Below are positions 13,902-50,019 of a stretch of DNA of 56,661 nt, one piece after another. Under the pieces are notes generated by a model. That model ran no database searches, was not told the origin of the DNA, and was given only the letters and a program-made list of their open reading frames with translations. Within the stretch, counting starts at the first letter, position 1, and every line of letters starts with the position of its first letter. Source of the stretch: a virus (Duplodnaviria > Caudoviricetes); IMG/VR virus record IMGVR_UViG_3300043395_002017, positions 1 through 56,661 of that record; one strand, 5' to 3'. A program made the position numbers and the translations under genes.

Positions 13902-13975
13902 TGGTGCCTCGTGACAGAATTGAACTGCCGACCTCGGACTACAAAACCGATGTTATACCGTTTAACTAACGAGGC
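13902..13975 (-). tRNA. tRNA-Thr (UGU)
   Basis: Cloverleaf: acceptor GCCTCGT/ACGAGGC, D arm GTTA/TAAC, anticodon loop TTTGTAG, T arm GGCAG-TTCAATT-CTGTC, encoded CCA. Confidence 0.92.
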
Positions 13976-18490: not shown

Positions 18491-18710
18491 ACTCCTTTAC
18501 TTGGTTTAGAAATTCATCACGTTGTGTTTGAGTGCTGTAGTACAACGTCAACAAAGTATACAGCGCATCCTTAACTGGGCGCATCCATTTTTCATCTTCC
18601 GGGTGTGGTGCGTCATTGAGGTCGCCACTCACCATAAAATAATGATCGATAAGTTGTGATCGAAACAACTCATCAAACATGTCGTCATTGACATCAATTT
18701 CTACTTTCAT
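18474..18710 (-). CDS. Hypothetical protein
   Basis: ATGA-coupled ORF. Confidence 0.6.
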   Translation of the reverse strand: MKVEIDVNDDMFDELFRSQLIDHYFMVSGDLNDAPHPEDEKWMRPVKDALYTLLTLYYSTQTQRDEFLNQVKEFEDGR

Positions 18711-19102
18711 TTCTTACGCTCCTTGCGCTCTCGTGCTGTCTTATCAGAATGACAGGGCTTGCACAGCACTTGCAGCCCGTCAGCTTCACAAAACATCCGT
18801 TCGACATAAGTGTTCCAGTCAACGAATCCAACCATTGTATCCACAACCGGATCGATATGGTCAACAACCACATTGGCAGCAGGGAAATTTGCCTTACATT
18901 TCGCACACTTGTAATGCTGCGCAAGCTTTCCTGTTTCTTTATTTGTTGTCTTGCCAACAAGCGCATCCTTCATCACTGCCCATTTGACAGGCCACCGACG
19001 GGACGCCGCACGTAGTGCGCTGACAACAAACGAACGAAACCGTGCCTCTGTCCATTCACCACCATTGCGTGTTTTAGAAGGGGTATTGCTCTTCTTCTTC
19101 AA
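18707..19102 (-). CDS. HNH endonuclease
   Basis: CAKC...VVDHIDPV...LQVLCKPCH. Confidence 0.85.
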   Translation of the reverse strand: MKKKSNTPSKTRNGGEWTEARFRSFVVSALRAASRRWPVKWAVMKDALVGKTTNKETGKLAQHYKCAKCKANFPAANVVVDHIDPVVDTMVGFVDWNTYVERMFCEADGLQVLCKPCHSDKTARERKERKK

Positions 19103-25533: not shown

Positions 25534-26661
25534 TCATGCACTCCTTTGCATAAGCTGCACATCTTCAACAAGCTGTGTCGGGAACTGTCTTATCTCCTGT
25601 GCCTTCGCTGCGCCTCGTCGAGTGTGAACGAAGTACGGCATCACAGACGACACATCCTGATGCCCGCTCATCTGCATCACGGTGATGAGGTCACCACCAT
25701 TCTCAATAGTTTCGGTGATGGCTGTGCGACGAAGGTCACGAAGCTGAAGCTCTCGACCAAGCTTTGCCGCTTCACAAATGTCGAGATAATATTTGTTGAT
25801 GGTGCTGACGGGATAGGGAATGAACTTGCCCTGTCGTCTCACCATCTGCGGGGCAACATAGTCGGACAAGAAGAAGTCCTTCTGCTGTTGCTTGAGCATT
25901 TTAGCAAGCCCTTCAGAGATTGGCAACTGCACTTTCGCATCACGTTTGCTCTGACGGATGGTGACGGTGTTGGTTTCGAAGTTGATATTTTCCCACTTCA
26001 GGTTGAGGATGTCGCTGACGCGCTGACCCCACTCGTACAGCATGTAAAACACAAGCCCTGCGTTGCGCCATTGCCAACGCGAGAATGCTGTGTTGAGAAA
26101 TGCTCGGACGTCTTCGCGTCGCCACATCACCTTGCGGTGTTTCAATTGCTTACATTTTATTTTCTCGAACGGATTGTGTCGAGTGTAGCCACAGCGGATG
26201 GCATAGTTAAGTAGCAGCTTATATATGGTGAGATGGGTGTTGGCAACACGCGGTGTTGTCTGACGCACCTGCTCGTCATACATGCGCTGTATCATGGGCG
26301 TTTCCAACGTTGACAGCTTCGCGTGCTGCAACGCAACACCGGCAACCTTGACGTTGCGCCATGCCTCGATTGAGAGTCGATATTGTTTCTTCGTTACTTC
26401 GGCAAGCGAAGTGAAGTTGACGCTATGCAGGTAGGCATAGATGACGTCTTTGATTTTGCCGTCCTTGCGCAGGTCGGCAATGTGTTTCATTGCGCTGCGC
26501 CATTCTTCCATACGGGCGTTGCTTTCGACGGCATAGGCTTCGGCGTCTTCGCGCTTGTCGAGCGGGAAAGACTTACGCTTGACGACGCCTGCATCGATTG
26601 CATTCTGTGGAGGATTGTAATAAATGTCAGAGACTCGAAAGCGTAAGTTTTGTGGTGTCAT
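25534..26661 (-). CDS. int: Tyrosine recombinase/integrase
   Basis: GQRVSD (R), QSKR (K), RDLRRT, SGHQ (H), MPYF (Y); SAM-like core-binding domain; start MTPQNL coupled to upstream gene. Confidence 0.88.
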   Translation of the reverse strand: MTPQNLRFRVSDIYYNPPQNAIDAGVVKRKSFPLDKREDAEAYAVESNARMEEWRSAMKHIADLRKDGKIKDVIYAYLHSVNFTSLAEVTKKQYRLSIEAWRNVKVAGVALQHAKLSTLETPMIQRMYDEQVRQTTPRVANTHLTIYKLLLNYAIRCGYTRHNPFEKIKCKQLKHRKVMWRREDVRAFLNTAFSRWQWRNAGLVFYMLYEWGQRVSDILNLKWENINFETNTVTIRQSKRDAKVQLPISEGLAKMLKQQQKDFFLSDYVAPQMVRRQGKFIPYPVSTINKYYLDICEAAKLGRELQLRDLRRTAITETIENGGDLITVMQMSGHQDVSSVMPYFVHTRRGAAKAQEIRQFPTQLVEDVQLMQRSA

Positions 26662-26876
26662 GTCCTGCTCCTGATGCATCTTGCCTGCTCCCGCAACACA
26701 GTCTGAACTGGACCGGGTGCGCAAATGTTGGAGCTATCGTCAATGGCTTTTGCGCATTCCTCACGCTCATGCGCGGCGACAAGTTCGGCGAAGCGTTCAA
26801 ACGCATCGGTGTGGTTCCATAGCCGAGGCTCAAGCCCTGCTTCTTCTGCCAGTCGGATGATGGTGTCACGATCCAT
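26658..26876 (-). CDS. Small protein, MxRDxIIRLA family
   Basis: Paralogous motifs ERFAELVAAHEREECAK. Confidence 0.7.
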   Translation of the reverse strand: MDRDTIIRLAEEAGLEPRLWNHTDAFERFAELVAAHEREECAKAIDDSSNICAPGPVQTVLREQARCIRSRT

Positions 26877-32692: not shown

Positions 32693-33093
32693 GCGGAGGG
32701 GTTTTGTCGGCATTCCTGACCGAAGATTGCGCCTCTGCCGTTACGTGATGCAACGACAACGTGTCGCGCCGTTGTCACGGGAAGCTCGCTCACGGCAGTG
32801 ACGAAGCTGTCGAACTTGTACGGATTGTATTTGATGGGGGTGAACAGCGCTTCGATGCGGTTGATGAAGCTGTCGCTCACGTTGGTGTTGATCATCTCAC
32901 CGACGACACCGGCATGTACGTTCTTGCGTTGCTCACGGATGACACGCTGACGTCCGGCTTCGGACACCTTGAACGTGGCGTTTGCAAGCAATACAGAGTC
33001 AGCATGGGCAATGACACGCCCTTTGCGCTCACCTTCGAGTGCCTTCACGCTCAGGCATTTACGATTCAAGTTGAAGTAGACCATCACACGCAT
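32689..33093 (-). CDS. Conserved hypothetical phage protein
   Basis: YFNLNRKCLSV...FKVSEAGRQRV.REQRKNVHAGVVG...YNPYK; aggaga RBS. Confidence 0.75.
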   Translation of the reverse strand: MRVMVYFNLNRKCLSVKALEGERKGRVIAHADSVLLANATFKVSEAGRQRVIREQRKNVHAGVVGEMINTNVSDSFINRIEALFTPIKYNPYKFDSFVTAVSELPVTTARHVVVASRNGRGAIFGQECRQNPSA

Positions 33094-33514
33094 TTGTTCT
33101 CTCCTTGAGATAGTCGATTGCACATTGCAATCGGTTGATGTCATCTTTCATATGTCCAATTGCAACATTGCAACAATGACAGATGATGCCGCGAACCTTA
33201 CCCGTTGCATGACAATGATCTACCACCGCCTGATTAGGCGGTCGAGAATCATTTCTTTTGATTGGTTCCACATGTAACTCTACGCTACATACTGCACATT
33301 TTCCATCTTGCGTGGCAACCATTGCCTCCCATTGTTGTCGAGTCAACCCGTAACGATGCTTCATTTGTTTCCATCTCTGGATACTTGGATCAGCCCGTTG
33401 TCTTTCAATGAGCGCTTTGTTGTGGCAAGATTTACAGGTAAATCTATGTCCCGTTGGCGTTTTGTAGAATTCTGTCAGTTGCTTTTCAACTGAACATGTT
33501 TTGCATTTGAACAT
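33059..33514 (-). CDS. Endonuclease VII-type (His-Me finger) putative homing endonuclease
   Basis: CKTC...CKSC, YGLT, CAVC, VDHCHATGKVRGIICHCCNVAIG. Confidence 0.9.
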   Translation of the reverse strand: MFKCKTCSVEKQLTEFYKTPTGHRFTCKSCHNKALIERQRADPSIQRWKQMKHRYGLTRQQWEAMVATQDGKCAVCSVELHVEPIKRNDSRPPNQAVVDHCHATGKVRGIICHCCNVAIGHMKDDINRLQCAIDYLKERTNACDGLLQLES

Positions 33515-35737: not shown

Positions 35738-36006
35738 GTTAGTGGTCACTAACATAGGGATTTTATCGCTCTGACGACAAAAGCACTTATTCCTACGGAA
35801 TAGACCTAAGCTGTTGATTTGCAAAGCAAATGACGTAGCGCGAGATCGTGCGCTAGAGCGCATTATGCGCGATCACACACACGCATCATGTGCGCGGATG
35901 ACGTGAGCATGACGTGGGCGGGCGTGGGCCACCCGGGGGTGCTAGCGCTATTGTATATAGCCTAGCACACAGATCAGGATTTTTAACTTTGTTAGTGGTC
36001 ACTAAC
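35738..36006. repeat. Two copies of near-palindrome GTTAGTGGTCACTAAC (35738-35753, 35991-36006)
   Basis: Exact 16-nt repeat read directly. Confidence 0.9.
35807..35819 (-). promoter_or_regulatory. IHF consensus site
   Basis: AATCAACAGCTTA matches WATCAANNNNTTR. Confidence 0.6.
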
Positions 36007-36198
36007 TTAGCATGCCAATAAAAACAACGACCTATCCCGATCTTGTGCATCCTGCCGCACACACCATCACCTACATCACCCAACACCACACGACACCATC
36101 CGGCACCAAACGACACCATCCTGCACTACAATGACAGCAAAAACATAGCTTTGTCGCATTGACGACGCGGGGTCAGCAACAACACCATGCTATGGTGA

Positions 36199-36213
36199 TG
36201 AGAATCATTCGCA
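36199..36213. promoter_or_regulatory. Fur-box-like site
   Basis: TGAGAAT-C-ATTCGCA versus 7-1-7 consensus TGATAAT-N-ATTATCA. Confidence 0.5.
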
Positions 36214-36290
36214 TTTACATAGAATAAATGGGGACAGAGACACAACAGAGTTGCTTTTGCTTGACAAAGACACGCAAGCTATGTAAAACT

Positions 36291-36462
36291 GGGGCTGTCG
36301 ATTGGACGGGTAACGGTGGCAATCGGCAACGACTGTAAAGTCGTCATAGCGCTACCACGGGAGAGACATTGAAACAGCGCAAATGGATGGCGAAGATAGC
36401 GTCCTAATGTCGAAAGGCTGTCGTAAGAGCTAACAAGCTCTAAAGGCTCCCCACAGGAGTCT
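36291..36462 (+). ncRNA. Candidate structured non-coding RNA of unknown family
   Basis: Several complementary stems, a GNRA loop, no ORF, TTGACA promoter upstream at 36261. Confidence 0.5.
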
Positions 36463-36703
36463 TAGTGTATCTATAGAGTGTTAATGAACAATAATAACAT
36501 TTTGATGCATGCTTCTAGTTGGTTTCATCTTTATACCTTGTTAACAATTTAAACACGCCAGTATCAGCACTCTAATAAATAAACATTGTTTTTAATCTAA
36601 CAAACATTGTTACTTCTAACATTGCTAATGTTAGAAACATAAAATAACAAAGATGTTGTTCTAAGTCGCTAATGTAACCGATAACAACCTATATAGTCTA
36701 CAT

Positions 36704-36731
36704 AAGGGAATTCTAACGAGTTCCCTTTTTT
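36704..36731 (+). terminator. Intrinsic terminator
   Basis: aagggaattc-taac-gagttccctt followed by T tract. Confidence 0.75.
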
Positions 36732-36753
36732 GTTAACTAAAAGCAGGGTGTTG

Positions 36754-36782
36754 TTGACACACAACGTATTTTGGTTTACATT
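36754..36782 (+). promoter_or_regulatory. sigma70-like promoter at start of late arm
   Basis: TTGACA-17-TACATT. Confidence 0.7.
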
Positions 36783-36804
36783 GTTACCCCGAAAGGAATG
36801 TGTT

Positions 36805-37059
36805 GTGGCCCGCTTCAAAACACGAAAAGAACTCGGAGCACTTGTTAATAGTCCGCCGCACAGCTATTATGCTGTTGCCATGAAACAGGTGTTCAAAGAC
36901 AAAGAAGAGGTGAAGACGATTGGATATCACTCTGATGTCTATTACGTCAGAGCAGCGTTAGAAAGGCATACAGGCTTGTTAATTCCGCTTCCGGCTGTTG
37001 ACAAAGCAATGCGTGACGAAGGCTGGTATGAAGGCGTTGTCAATAGACGTCGCTATTAA
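36805..37059 (+). CDS. Hypothetical protein
   Basis: GTG start after gaaagga; HSDVYYVRAALE.HTG. Confidence 0.7.
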   Translation: MARFKTRKELGALVNSPPHSYYAVAMKQVFKDKEEVKTIGYHSDVYYVRAALERHTGLLIPLPAVDKAMRDEGWYEGVVNRRRY

Positions 37060-37082
37060 TTTCTGTTACAACGCGGAGTAAT

Positions 37083-37358
37083 ATGACCATCAAACGAGGC
37101 AACGAAACTTTCAGTGGCTACAACAAGCCTAAGCGTACTCCTTCTCATCCGAAGAAGAGCCATGCTGTTTTGGCTAAAGAGGGCGACAAAGTGAAGCTCA
37201 TTCGTTTTGGTCAACAAGGCGTTAGTGGTTCTCCAAAGAAAGAAAACGAAAGCGAAGCCTATCGCAAACGTCGTGAAAGCTTCAAAGCTCGACACGCCAG
37301 TAATATAGCTAAAGGCAAAATGTCTGCTGCGTATTGGGCTGACAAGGAGAAGTGGTAA
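37083..37358 (+). CDS. Conserved small basic phage protein (DUF6321-like)
   Basis: GYNKPKRTP.HPKKSH...KLIRFGQQG...SFKARH...AAYWA. Confidence 0.8.
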   Translation: MTIKRGNETFSGYNKPKRTPSHPKKSHAVLAKEGDKVKLIRFGQQGVSGSPKKENESEAYRKRRESFKARHASNIAKGKMSAAYWADKEKW

Positions 37359-37624
37359 TGCCGTTTCAGTCGAATGGAAAACGACAATATAGTCGTGAGC
37401 TTCAATGGGAAAAAGACAGCAAGCCGCAGCGTGTTAAACAGCGTGCTCAACGCAATGCTGCCAGAGCTAAGCTGATGGACGAAGGCGCAGTTAAGCCGGG
37501 TCATGATGTTGACCATAAGCGTCCTCTGTCAAAGGGTGGTAGCAATACACGTAGCAATTTGCGTTCTGTTCCGGCGTCAAAGAACAGAAGCGTTAAGCGT
37601 AAAGCTGATGGAAGTTTGCGATAA
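37358..37624 (+). CDS. HNH endonuclease-like protein
   Basis: DVDHKRPLSKGGSN.RSNLR...NRS. Confidence 0.8.
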   Translation: MPFQSNGKRQYSRELQWEKDSKPQRVKQRAQRNAARAKLMDEGAVKPGHDVDHKRPLSKGGSNTRSNLRSVPASKNRSVKRKADGSLR

Positions 37625-49572: not shown

Positions 49573-50019
49573 ATGAAGATACCACTTACGCTCCGCGATG
49601 ACCACCCGTATAAAGATGGTAGAGAGTGTAGTGTTTGTGGTATCTTTAAGTTAGCATCAGAGTTTCAGTTAGAACGAGACGAAAAAGCAAGGGGTGGAGT
49701 TTCTTTGCGGGGTCAATGTAAACCCTGTAGAGAACATATCAAGTGGAAGACATTTATTGTTCGAACTTACGGAATTACTCCCGAACAATATTATCAATTG
49801 CTTGATGAACAAGAAGGAAAGTGTGCAATTTGCAAATCCGAGTCTCCAAATTCTGAAAGAATTGGAAGCGGAAAATTGTTTATTGACCATTGCCACGACA
49901 CTAAAAAAGTTCGCGGTCTTCTTTGTGCTAAATGTAATCTCGGTATCGGCTACTTGAACGACGATGTTGACCTTCTGCAATCGGCAATAGAATATATTAA
50001 CTCTTCAAAGGAAAAATAA
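49573..50019 (+). CDS. Endonuclease VII-type putative homing endonuclease
   Basis: CSVC...CKPC, YGIT, CAIC, IDHCHDTKKVRGLLCAKCNLGIG; AT-rich relative to flanks. Confidence 0.9.
   Translation: MKIPLTLRDDHPYKDGRECSVCGIFKLASEFQLERDEKARGGVSLRGQCKPCREHIKWKTFIVRTYGITPEQYYQLLDEQEGKCAICKSESPNSERIGSGKLFIDHCHDTKKVRGLLCAKCNLGIGYLNDDVDLLQSAIEYINSSKEK

Follow-up and report, generated by a model that had tools for sequence, protein, structure and literature searches.

The put RNAs of phage HK022, which consist of two hairpins and measure ~70 nucleotides (nt), and the EAR RNA of Bacillus are processive antiterminators made of RNA only. The C4 RNA of phages P1 and P7 (Rfam family RF01695) and the CI RNA of phage P4 are antisense RNAs that are processed by RNase P and flanked by repeated target words. 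RNA II of plasmid ColE1 involves a G-run and a C-run, origins of its type have a lasting RNA-DNA hybrid with DNA starts at the end of the RNA, and the primary origin of phage T7 combines a promoter with AT-rich DNA. The principle that RNA II represents, an origin primed by a transcript, is outlined in PMC5043065. Here we analyze a structured RNA encoded by a phage genome of 56,661 bases, the virus record IMGVR_UViG_3300043395_002017 (the whole stretch is referred to as the window), and identify this RNA as a member of Rfam family RF02932, Betaproteobacteria-1 RNA.

RF02932, which Rfam types as "Gene; sRNA", is attributed to a 2017 survey of 224 motifs (PMC5737381) and has been in Rfam since then. 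A literature search by family name and accession found nothing on the function of the family, and the main text of the survey does not contain the motif (its supplement lay outside that search).

Family membership and fold of the RNA

When the whole window was compared to Rfam with Infernal, two matches exceeded their gathering scores: a tRNA (13905-13975) and RF02932 (36295-36426, + strand). The latter scored 67.1 bits against a gathering score of 49.4, covered model positions 1-120 of 120, and was found on the + strand only, while our own covariance model (R1), built from 7 diverse members with three nested helices only, scored the window RNA at 63.2 bits. In the cmscan alignment all model helices (P1, P2, and P4) are present in the window, with one non-standard pair in P1, and the single insertion relative to the model is a 16-nt hairpin (ACGACT-GTAA-AGTCGT) between the first and second helices, P1 and P2. 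The window further shares with the family the invariant blocks CGGGTAAC, GGGA, GGCGAAG, and CGAAAGGCT. Unlike the model, the window has a promoter that abuts P1 and a terminator that follows 280 nt after the end of the model, and its RNA runs ~50 nt past that end, compared to ~75 nt in most relatives, which end in ACCA. A preliminary description of the locus could not assign a known family, proposed Infernal against Rfam as a check, and held that an Rfam hit would remove the novelty. The match lies well above the cut-off, so the family is assigned after all and that novelty falls; we consider membership in RF02932, and the fold given below, practically certain. The family is already catalogued, and the window RNA is a somewhat aberrant member of it, with an extra hairpin, a promoter and terminator of its own, and neither the ACCA end nor the duplicated word that we describe below for its relatives.

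Other assignments found no support. The only other match at E ≤ 1 in 35800-36900, SQ2397 downstream of the RNA, was rejected (29.5 bits against a cut-off of 100). Known ribozyme and riboswitch families gave no Rfam match at E ≤ 1 in 35800-36900, nor at E ≤ 0.1 in six related loci, and the C4 family was absent from the matches of the Rfam scans of the window region and these six loci. With ARAGORN, neither the window nor 10 relatives yielded a tRNA or tmRNA at the site, and the tail of the window RNA has no ACCA.

The fold is supported above all by covariation among 90 relatives of less than 97% identity, aligned to our own three-nested-helix model, in which the crossing helices P3 and K were not modeled; this alignment was fitted to P1, P2, and P4 and is hence biased toward those helices. 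Across the five core helices, 93.4% of 2609 cells were standard pairs, compared to 63.5% after shuffling (0 of 500 shuffles reached the observed value). The covariation score was 0.738, against 0.181 for shuffled alignments and at most 0.104 for slid registers, and 25 of the 30 pairs change on both sides. P1 (98.0% paired) has eight pairs, each with changes on both sides, and within the window clade, a clade of its own with eight members, the stem is fully compensated in L004 and L008. Five pairs of P2 (84.5% paired) change on both sides, and three of the six pairs of P4 (97.0% paired) covary (e.g. UA 43, CG 36, AU 11). Both pseudoknots covary as well: all five pairs of K are changed on both sides and 89.9% paired, even though K is absent from the aligning model, and the outer pairs of P3 covary (e.g. 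GC 48, AU 23, CG 17 of 90), its inner pairs being invariant or G.U. The inserted hairpin is variable and compensated across the clade, larger in L008, and absent in L020. Among 16 diverse sequences including the window, 38 columns are invariant (blocks CGG-TAAC, GGG, TGA-A, GG-TGGCGAAG, AGCG-CC, and CGAAAGGCT). The folding energy on the + strand is -59.6 kcal/mol (z = -2.46, with 3 of 200 shuffles as good), compared to z = -0.68 on the - strand (48 of 200 shuffles as good). From its 5' end, the RNA comprises P1, the inserted hairpin, a compact core whose hairpins P2 and P4 are linked through the pseudoknots P3 and K (the latter a loop-loop helix), and two tail hairpins (Table 1).

These results agree with much of the preliminary description, which had proposed a phage noncoding RNA with a multiloop and a possible pseudoknot behind a promoter that it named: the Rfam match, the covariation, and the conservation of that promoter all support a phage noncoding RNA with several helices and real pseudoknots, read rightward from there. 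Every helix that it listed is present at, or within a few bases of, the place given, and covariation in homologs, which it suggested as a check, was found. The stretch that it called free of open reading frames (ORFs) is touched by only two short frames of at least 30 amino acids (aa), 36228-36338 (+, 36 aa) and 36215-36322 (-, 35 aa). Its multiloop with a crossing GCGCT/AGCGC pairing comprises the same, real set of helices under labels that differ from the Rfam drawing; since P2 and P4 are nested in the usual drawing and P3 and K are the pseudoknots, GCGCT/AGCGC is relabeled here as the nested helix P2.

Table 1. Coordinates of the RNA, its helices, and the flanking control elements in the window.
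Feature	Position	Strand	Description
Sigma-70-type promoter	36261-36290	+	-35 TTGACA 36261-36266, 17-nt spacer, -10 TAAAAC 36284-36289 within TGTAAAACT 36282-36290
Core RNA	36295-36426	+	Full-length RF02932 match
P1 hairpin, TGTCGATTG/CAATCGGCA	36296-36304 / 36320-36328	+	Conserved loop ACGGGTAACGG 36306-36316
Inserted hairpin, ACGACT-GTAA-AGTCGT	36329-36344	+	Clade-specific, outside the Rfam model
P2 hairpin, GCGCT/AGCGC	36349-36353 / 36376-36380	+	Loop holds GGGA and the 5' strand of kissing helix K
Pseudoknot K, GACATT/AATGTC	36365-36370 (P2 loop) / 36406-36411 (P4 loop)	+	Covariation
Pseudoknot P3, GGATG/CGTCC	36385-36389 / 36400-36404	+	Spans invariant GCGAAG 36390-36395
P4, GATAGC/GCTGTC	36395-36400 / 36417-36422	+	Encloses CGAAAG
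Tail outside the Rfam model	36426-36478	+	Hairpin, AAAGG, hairpin, conserved end ~36478
Tail hairpin, AGAGCT-AACA-AGCTCT	36426-36441	+	
Tail hairpin, GGCTCC/GGAGTC	36445-36450 / 36456-36461	+	
AT-rich tract	36479-36703	+	225 nt, 28% GC, four AACATTGNTA copies, 10/3/10 palindrome
Intrinsic terminator, AAGGGAATTC-TAAC-GAGTTCCCTT then TTTTTTG	36704-36735	+	Stem 36704-36727 and T-run
Second promoter-like site	36754-36782	+	TTGACA 36754, 17 nt, TACATT 36777-36782; 10/12 consensus matches; precedes the first rightward ORF

A predicted transcription unit from promoter to terminator

The elements around the RNA are conserved within the window clade. All 8 of 8 clade members share TTGACA and TGTAAAACTGG without change, with a variable spacer and upstream flank, and both the TTGACA and the TAAAACT box of the preliminary description are present at, or within a few bases of, the places that it gave. 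A consensus scan missed this promoter because its -10 box has too few matches to TATAAT. From the 17-nt spacer and the position of the -10 box, the transcription start is expected at ~36293-36296, at the base of P1. Beyond the end of the Rfam model, conservation continues to ~36478 in all clade members, with compensated stems (CTCC/GGAG, CTCAG/CTGAG, and CTTAGC/GCTAAG). The terminator is kept in the window, L018, and L004, and its place in L008 is taken by another G+C stem with a T-run; the TTGACA of the second promoter-like site is kept in 4 subclade members. Since the -35 and -10 boxes are invariant amid divergent flanks, terminator function is retained in L008, and the second TTGACA is also kept, we infer that the window RNA is a self-contained transcription unit and not the 5' untranslated region of a gene. 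From the conserved sigma-70 promoter, host RNA polymerase would make a transcript whose 5' end lies on the first pairs of P1 and which passes the 225-nt AT-rich tract and ends at the intrinsic terminator; this unit would measure ~440 nt, with the folded RNA at its 5' end and the downstream operon promoted separately.

The tract between the RNA and the terminator had been described as AT-rich and origin-like. The first part of this holds (28% GC), but with its repeats and terminator the tract is no less consistent with a control region than with an origin. The window contains 3 copies of AACAWTGTT, where 0.82 are expected (4 of 100 shuffles reach 3), and a 10-mer related to the tract repeats recurs over the -10 box of the second promoter-like site. 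An identical 250-nt metatranscriptome contig covers 36312-36561 at a depth of 3.4, and the runs with this stretch are labeled freshwater; such RNA-library contigs are of low depth and show neither ends nor strand, and the parts that they leave uncovered are uninformative. Searches of the window for trans targets of the P1 loop and the tail returned only their own site or matches at chance level.

Relatives of the RNA and its setting in phage genomes

Scanning IMG/VR for a conserved word from the 3' half of the RNA yielded 22 contigs, each of which passes the Rfam cut-off (59.5-100.5 bits), and a relaxed word found at least 119 stretches. Our own model matched 136 of 144 sources, namely the window, 132 of 135 viral loci (L044, L070, and L086 failed), and 3 of 8 cellular contigs (L025, L026, L028, L029, and L031 failed); six loci that scored low with it reached 86.8-102.4 bits with the Rfam model. 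There are 122 distinct sequences, 94 of them below 97% identity. The eight cellular contigs came from a word search of one genome for each of 185,579 species, and the three confirmed ones are titled Roseateles and Rhodocyclaceae. Scans of 150 further genomes from the class of one carrier gave no RF02932 match, and among 150 genomes from its order 1 had the RNA. Given this rarity in cells, the family is essentially phage-borne: its carriers are mainly phages rather than cells. A blastn search of 35800-37100 against 50,697 phage records gave no match. As a separate observation, L114 and L134 are one IMG/VR contig (44,384 bases) with two copies of the RNA ~35 kb apart, whose cores are near-identical and whose duplicated words differ; this could reflect two related elements or an assembly join.

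The RNA recurs in four gene arrangements. Of 94 loci, 80 have a conserved or long downstream ORF, and the first such ORF lies on the RNA strand in 74 of them, often 20-100 nt behind the tail; the last upstream ORF lies on the RNA strand in 68 of 84 loci. A replication gene occurs within ~3 kb in 52 of 94 loci, although many loci are truncated. These strand and replication-gene counts were scripted, and the layouts were read from gene maps. In the first layout, a cro-like helix-turn-helix gene is followed by a structured leader with a terminator, the RNA, and a replication-initiator gene, with recombination genes diverging to the left. In the second, helicase and primase genes precede the RNA, which follows directly after the stop codon; four of these primase-type loci (L101, L051, L118, and L131) have a terminator 127-143 nt behind the end of the model. 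The third has a RusA or HNH gene, the RNA, and then ParB-like and helicase genes, and the fourth is the arrangement of the window, with its own promoter. Upstream of the RNA, a simple terminator finder gave 6 of 102 and a T-run was present in 63 of 119; since this finder misses long, bulged upstream terminators, its downstream counts are lower bounds.

The leader of the cro-type relatives, which the window does not have, is an uncatalogued element of ~125 nt in its own right, located between a -10-like TGnTATAGT and the RNA (L093:856-1020, L105:3197-3361, L122:3097-3261 (-), and 13 more; alignment A6). It consists of a hairpin and a long two-part stem that encloses an inner hairpin and ends in a U-run 10-25 nt before P1. 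RNAalifold predicted 37 pairs, 26 of them compensated, and by eye a 7-nt hairpin loop pairs with a 7-mer before the 3' strand of the terminator in 12 of 12 sequences (GTGAAGT/ACTTCAC, CTGGAAT/ATTCCAG). An Rfam scan of 6 loci, 4 of them from A6, gave no match for this leader at E ≤ 0.1.

Most family members differ from the window clade in their tails. In these members the RNA extends ~75 nt past the model, with GGCTCC-R and a variable word in a hairpin loop, GAAGG, a second hairpin, and YGYYCACC-A followed by a near-identical word. The duplicated word in relatives (L002-L144) is phage-specific, 10-15 nt long, and located ~10-75 nt behind the end of the model. Both tail motifs are present in 63 of 92 sequences, and the two words of a pair are identical at 7.92 of 12 positions, compared to 4.66 ± 0.21 for permuted pairs (maximum 5.44 in 2000). 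The downstream copy of the word, after the tail, consists of 75% purines and precedes ~80 nt at 65-70% AT, and the tail itself ends in C-ACCA in 56 of 65 instances, ACCG in 5, and ACCT in 4. The window clade has neither the word pair nor the ACCA. Of 69 distinct segments, the 29 that measure 27-31 nt have a hairpin as large as a tRNA acceptor/T-arm minihelix, and most of these fold into ~11 pairs plus an A.C before the ACCA. A family-wide tRNA-like minihelix was rejected, as a strict 12-position register fails (positions 4-9 are paired in 62%, compared to 58% after shuffling); U at position 70 in 41 of 65 means that there is no fixed alanine-type G.U. We retain the tRNA-like minihelix as a lead only.

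These relatives (and not the window) resemble C4 and CI RNA in that, within an early leader, two direct copies of a phage-specific word flank a small hairpin that ends in ACCA. They differ from them in that no complementary segment lies within 220 nt upstream and no further copy of the word occurs in the loci. Specifically, partners for a locus's own word in the 220 nt upstream were no better than those for the words of other loci (own word ahead in 42 of 80, Wilcoxon p = 0.54), and 85 loci contained no further word copies on either strand. Apparent partner matches near -140 were rejected as A-runs facing the U-run of the upstream terminator, and GYYCACC was rejected as an iteron, having one copy per locus and no local excess.

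The window itself, an uncultivated virus record that lists no host, is a phage genome with direct terminal repeats, rated 100% complete, with 49.8% GC overall. To the left of the RNA lie small genes and a GP88-like gene, and farther left genes for endonuclease VII, integrase, a T7-type primase-helicase, DNA polymerase, a gp2.5-like protein, exonuclease, thymidylate synthase, and ribonucleotide reductase; the right side has small genes and genes for an HNH protein, virion proteins, terminase, portal, major head, tail, and lysis. This gene layout places the RNA where a leftward replication arm and a rightward structural arm diverge. No phage RNA polymerase was seen among the window ORFs scanned, and GC skew tracks gene direction and places no origin.

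Several further features of the window were observed. The palindrome TTAGTG-GT-CACTAA occurs at 35739-35752 and 35992-36005, 253 nt apart on the left side of the control region, with no further copy in the genome (4 strand-matches compared to 0.30 expected; 0 of 100 shuffles had as many), and is operator-like. Just left of the promoter, 36073-36122 contains tandem ACACCA-type repeats at 10-nt spacing (three 20-mers, 75-100% identity) together with two copies of ACGACACCATCC, all inside a weak reverse frame of 77 aa. A tyrosine-integrase-like gene (25537-26724, - strand; phrog_1, E = 3.9e-42) lies amid the T7-type replication genes, and a podovirus-style genome with a T7-like replisome may thus be temperate. 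Endonuclease VII-like genes occur once per arm (33062-33514, - strand, and 49573-50016, + strand, the second between the major head and tail genes) and, with the HNH genes at 18710-19102 and 37352-37624, make up a high load of small nucleases.

Possible roles of the RNA

The preliminary description had suggested a ribozyme-like, replication-primer, or regulatory RNA. We favor, as an even call, the reading that the folded RNA is itself the product: a stable early RNA that binds one conserved partner, such as a host machine (e.g. RNA polymerase, or an RNA- or tRNA-handling enzyme), and does not base-pair with a phage-specific target. About 40 nt are invariant across phages with unrelated replication and structural genes, which suggests a surface for one conserved partner. 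Moreover, the core is the same whether it opens a transcription unit, comes after a terminator, or follows a primase gene, which favors a portable, self-folding RNA. Several points weigh against a stable, partner-binding product. Action in trans is suggested by the architecture alone, and with 74 of 80 scorable downstream ORFs of the relatives on the RNA strand, action in cis would be equally natural there. The order of promoter, RNA, terminator, and genes would also be expected of an RNA antiterminator. The RNA-library contig runs 83 nt past 36478, and at a depth of 3.4 it possibly represents carried-over DNA. The promoter, the start site, and the second promoter are putative, being readings of consensus sequences, and this reading does not account for the duplicated word of the relatives.

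A rather unlikely alternative is that the nascent RNA acts in cis as a protein-free processive antiterminator, carrying polymerase from the 36261 promoter through the 36704-36735 terminator into the structural genes. The window has the promoter, RNA, terminator, and long co-oriented operon that this would need, the strong conservation would suit binding to host polymerase, and the strand bias of the first downstream ORF in the relatives fits as well. In many relatives the RNA also occupies the position of nutR and putR, between a cro-like gene and replication genes, and, like put and EAR RNA, it is a folded RNA early in a long transcript, before terminators and on the same strand as the genes. 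However, the cro-type relatives have a terminator ahead of the RNA instead of after it, and the terminators within ~140 nt in four primase-type loci look like those that close a unit. Behind the terminator of the window comes a conserved second promoter, antitermination does not account for the tRNA-like end and duplicated word of the relatives, and at least five helices, with two pseudoknots, are unlike the two hairpins by which put is described.

Less probable still is an origin RNA, in which transcription through the folded RNA into the AT-rich tract would open the DNA or leave a primer for a T7-type replisome and, in relatives, the word copy in the loop would anchor the RNA to the template strand. 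The window resembles ColE1 RNA II and the T7 primary origin in combining a host-type promoter, a folded RNA, and AT-rich DNA next to replication genes: it encodes a T7-like primase-helicase, DNA polymerase, gp2.5-like protein, and exonuclease, with no phage RNA polymerase among the ORFs scanned, and the RNA sits at the divergence of the arms, followed by the tract of 225 nt at 28% GC. Replication genes also lie near the RNA in over half of the loci (52 of 94), and the upstream loop of relatives repeats a purine-rich word from downstream, reminiscent of the G-run of RNA II, with AT-rich DNA behind it. On the other hand, the window clade lacks the repeated word, and an invariant core shared by phages with different initiators (O-like, primase-helicase, and T7-like), and thus by unrelated replicons, would not be needed for an origin RNA. 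The AT-rich tract has operator-like repeats, one of them over the next -10 box, and ends in a terminator; AT-richness is usual in intergenic DNA, and GC skew follows gene direction. The comparison with RNA II and the T7 origin covers layout and composition.

We assign a similarly low probability to a combined scheme, in which the core would be a docking module for a host machine, used by phages with unrelated replication genes to couple early transcription to the start of DNA replication, either as a portable RNA II-like primer or opener, which in most relatives would be matured at the ACCA and anchored by the word copy in the loop, or as a new class of RNA-only antiterminator.

An undescribed class of self-cleaving ribozyme or ligand-sensing aptamer seems very unlikely. 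Double-pseudoknot folds are typical of small ribozymes and riboswitches, and the compact core of this RNA, with invariant purine-rich joiners (GCGAAG, CGAAAG, and GGGA), has this character; but known families gave no match in the scans described above (E ≤ 1 in 35800-36900; E ≤ 0.1 in six related loci), we saw no conserved expression platform, and a metabolite switch is disfavored by the wide variety of unrelated genes downstream. Finally, although the divergent control region holds other repeats and palindromes (e.g. two copies of TTAGTGGTCACTAA), the idea that the helices are protein-binding DNA repeats or chance complementarity can be set aside in view of strand-specific compensatory changes (25 of 30 pairs in 90 sequences), an Rfam match on one strand only, and a folding energy that stands out on the + strand (z = -2.46) compared to the - strand (z = -0.68).

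Overall, the RNA is overwhelmingly phage-borne, occupies control regions for early functions or replication in many unrelated phages from fresh water, and is larger and more knotted than its catalogue model. The contribution of the window alone is modest: it provides a correct annotation and a clean, promoter-to-terminator version of the gene that is suited to experiments. Conservation across such different phages suggests that the RNA contacts something central in the host or in phage development, and identifying what it binds could uncover a new RNA-based step in the way phages control their genes or replicate.

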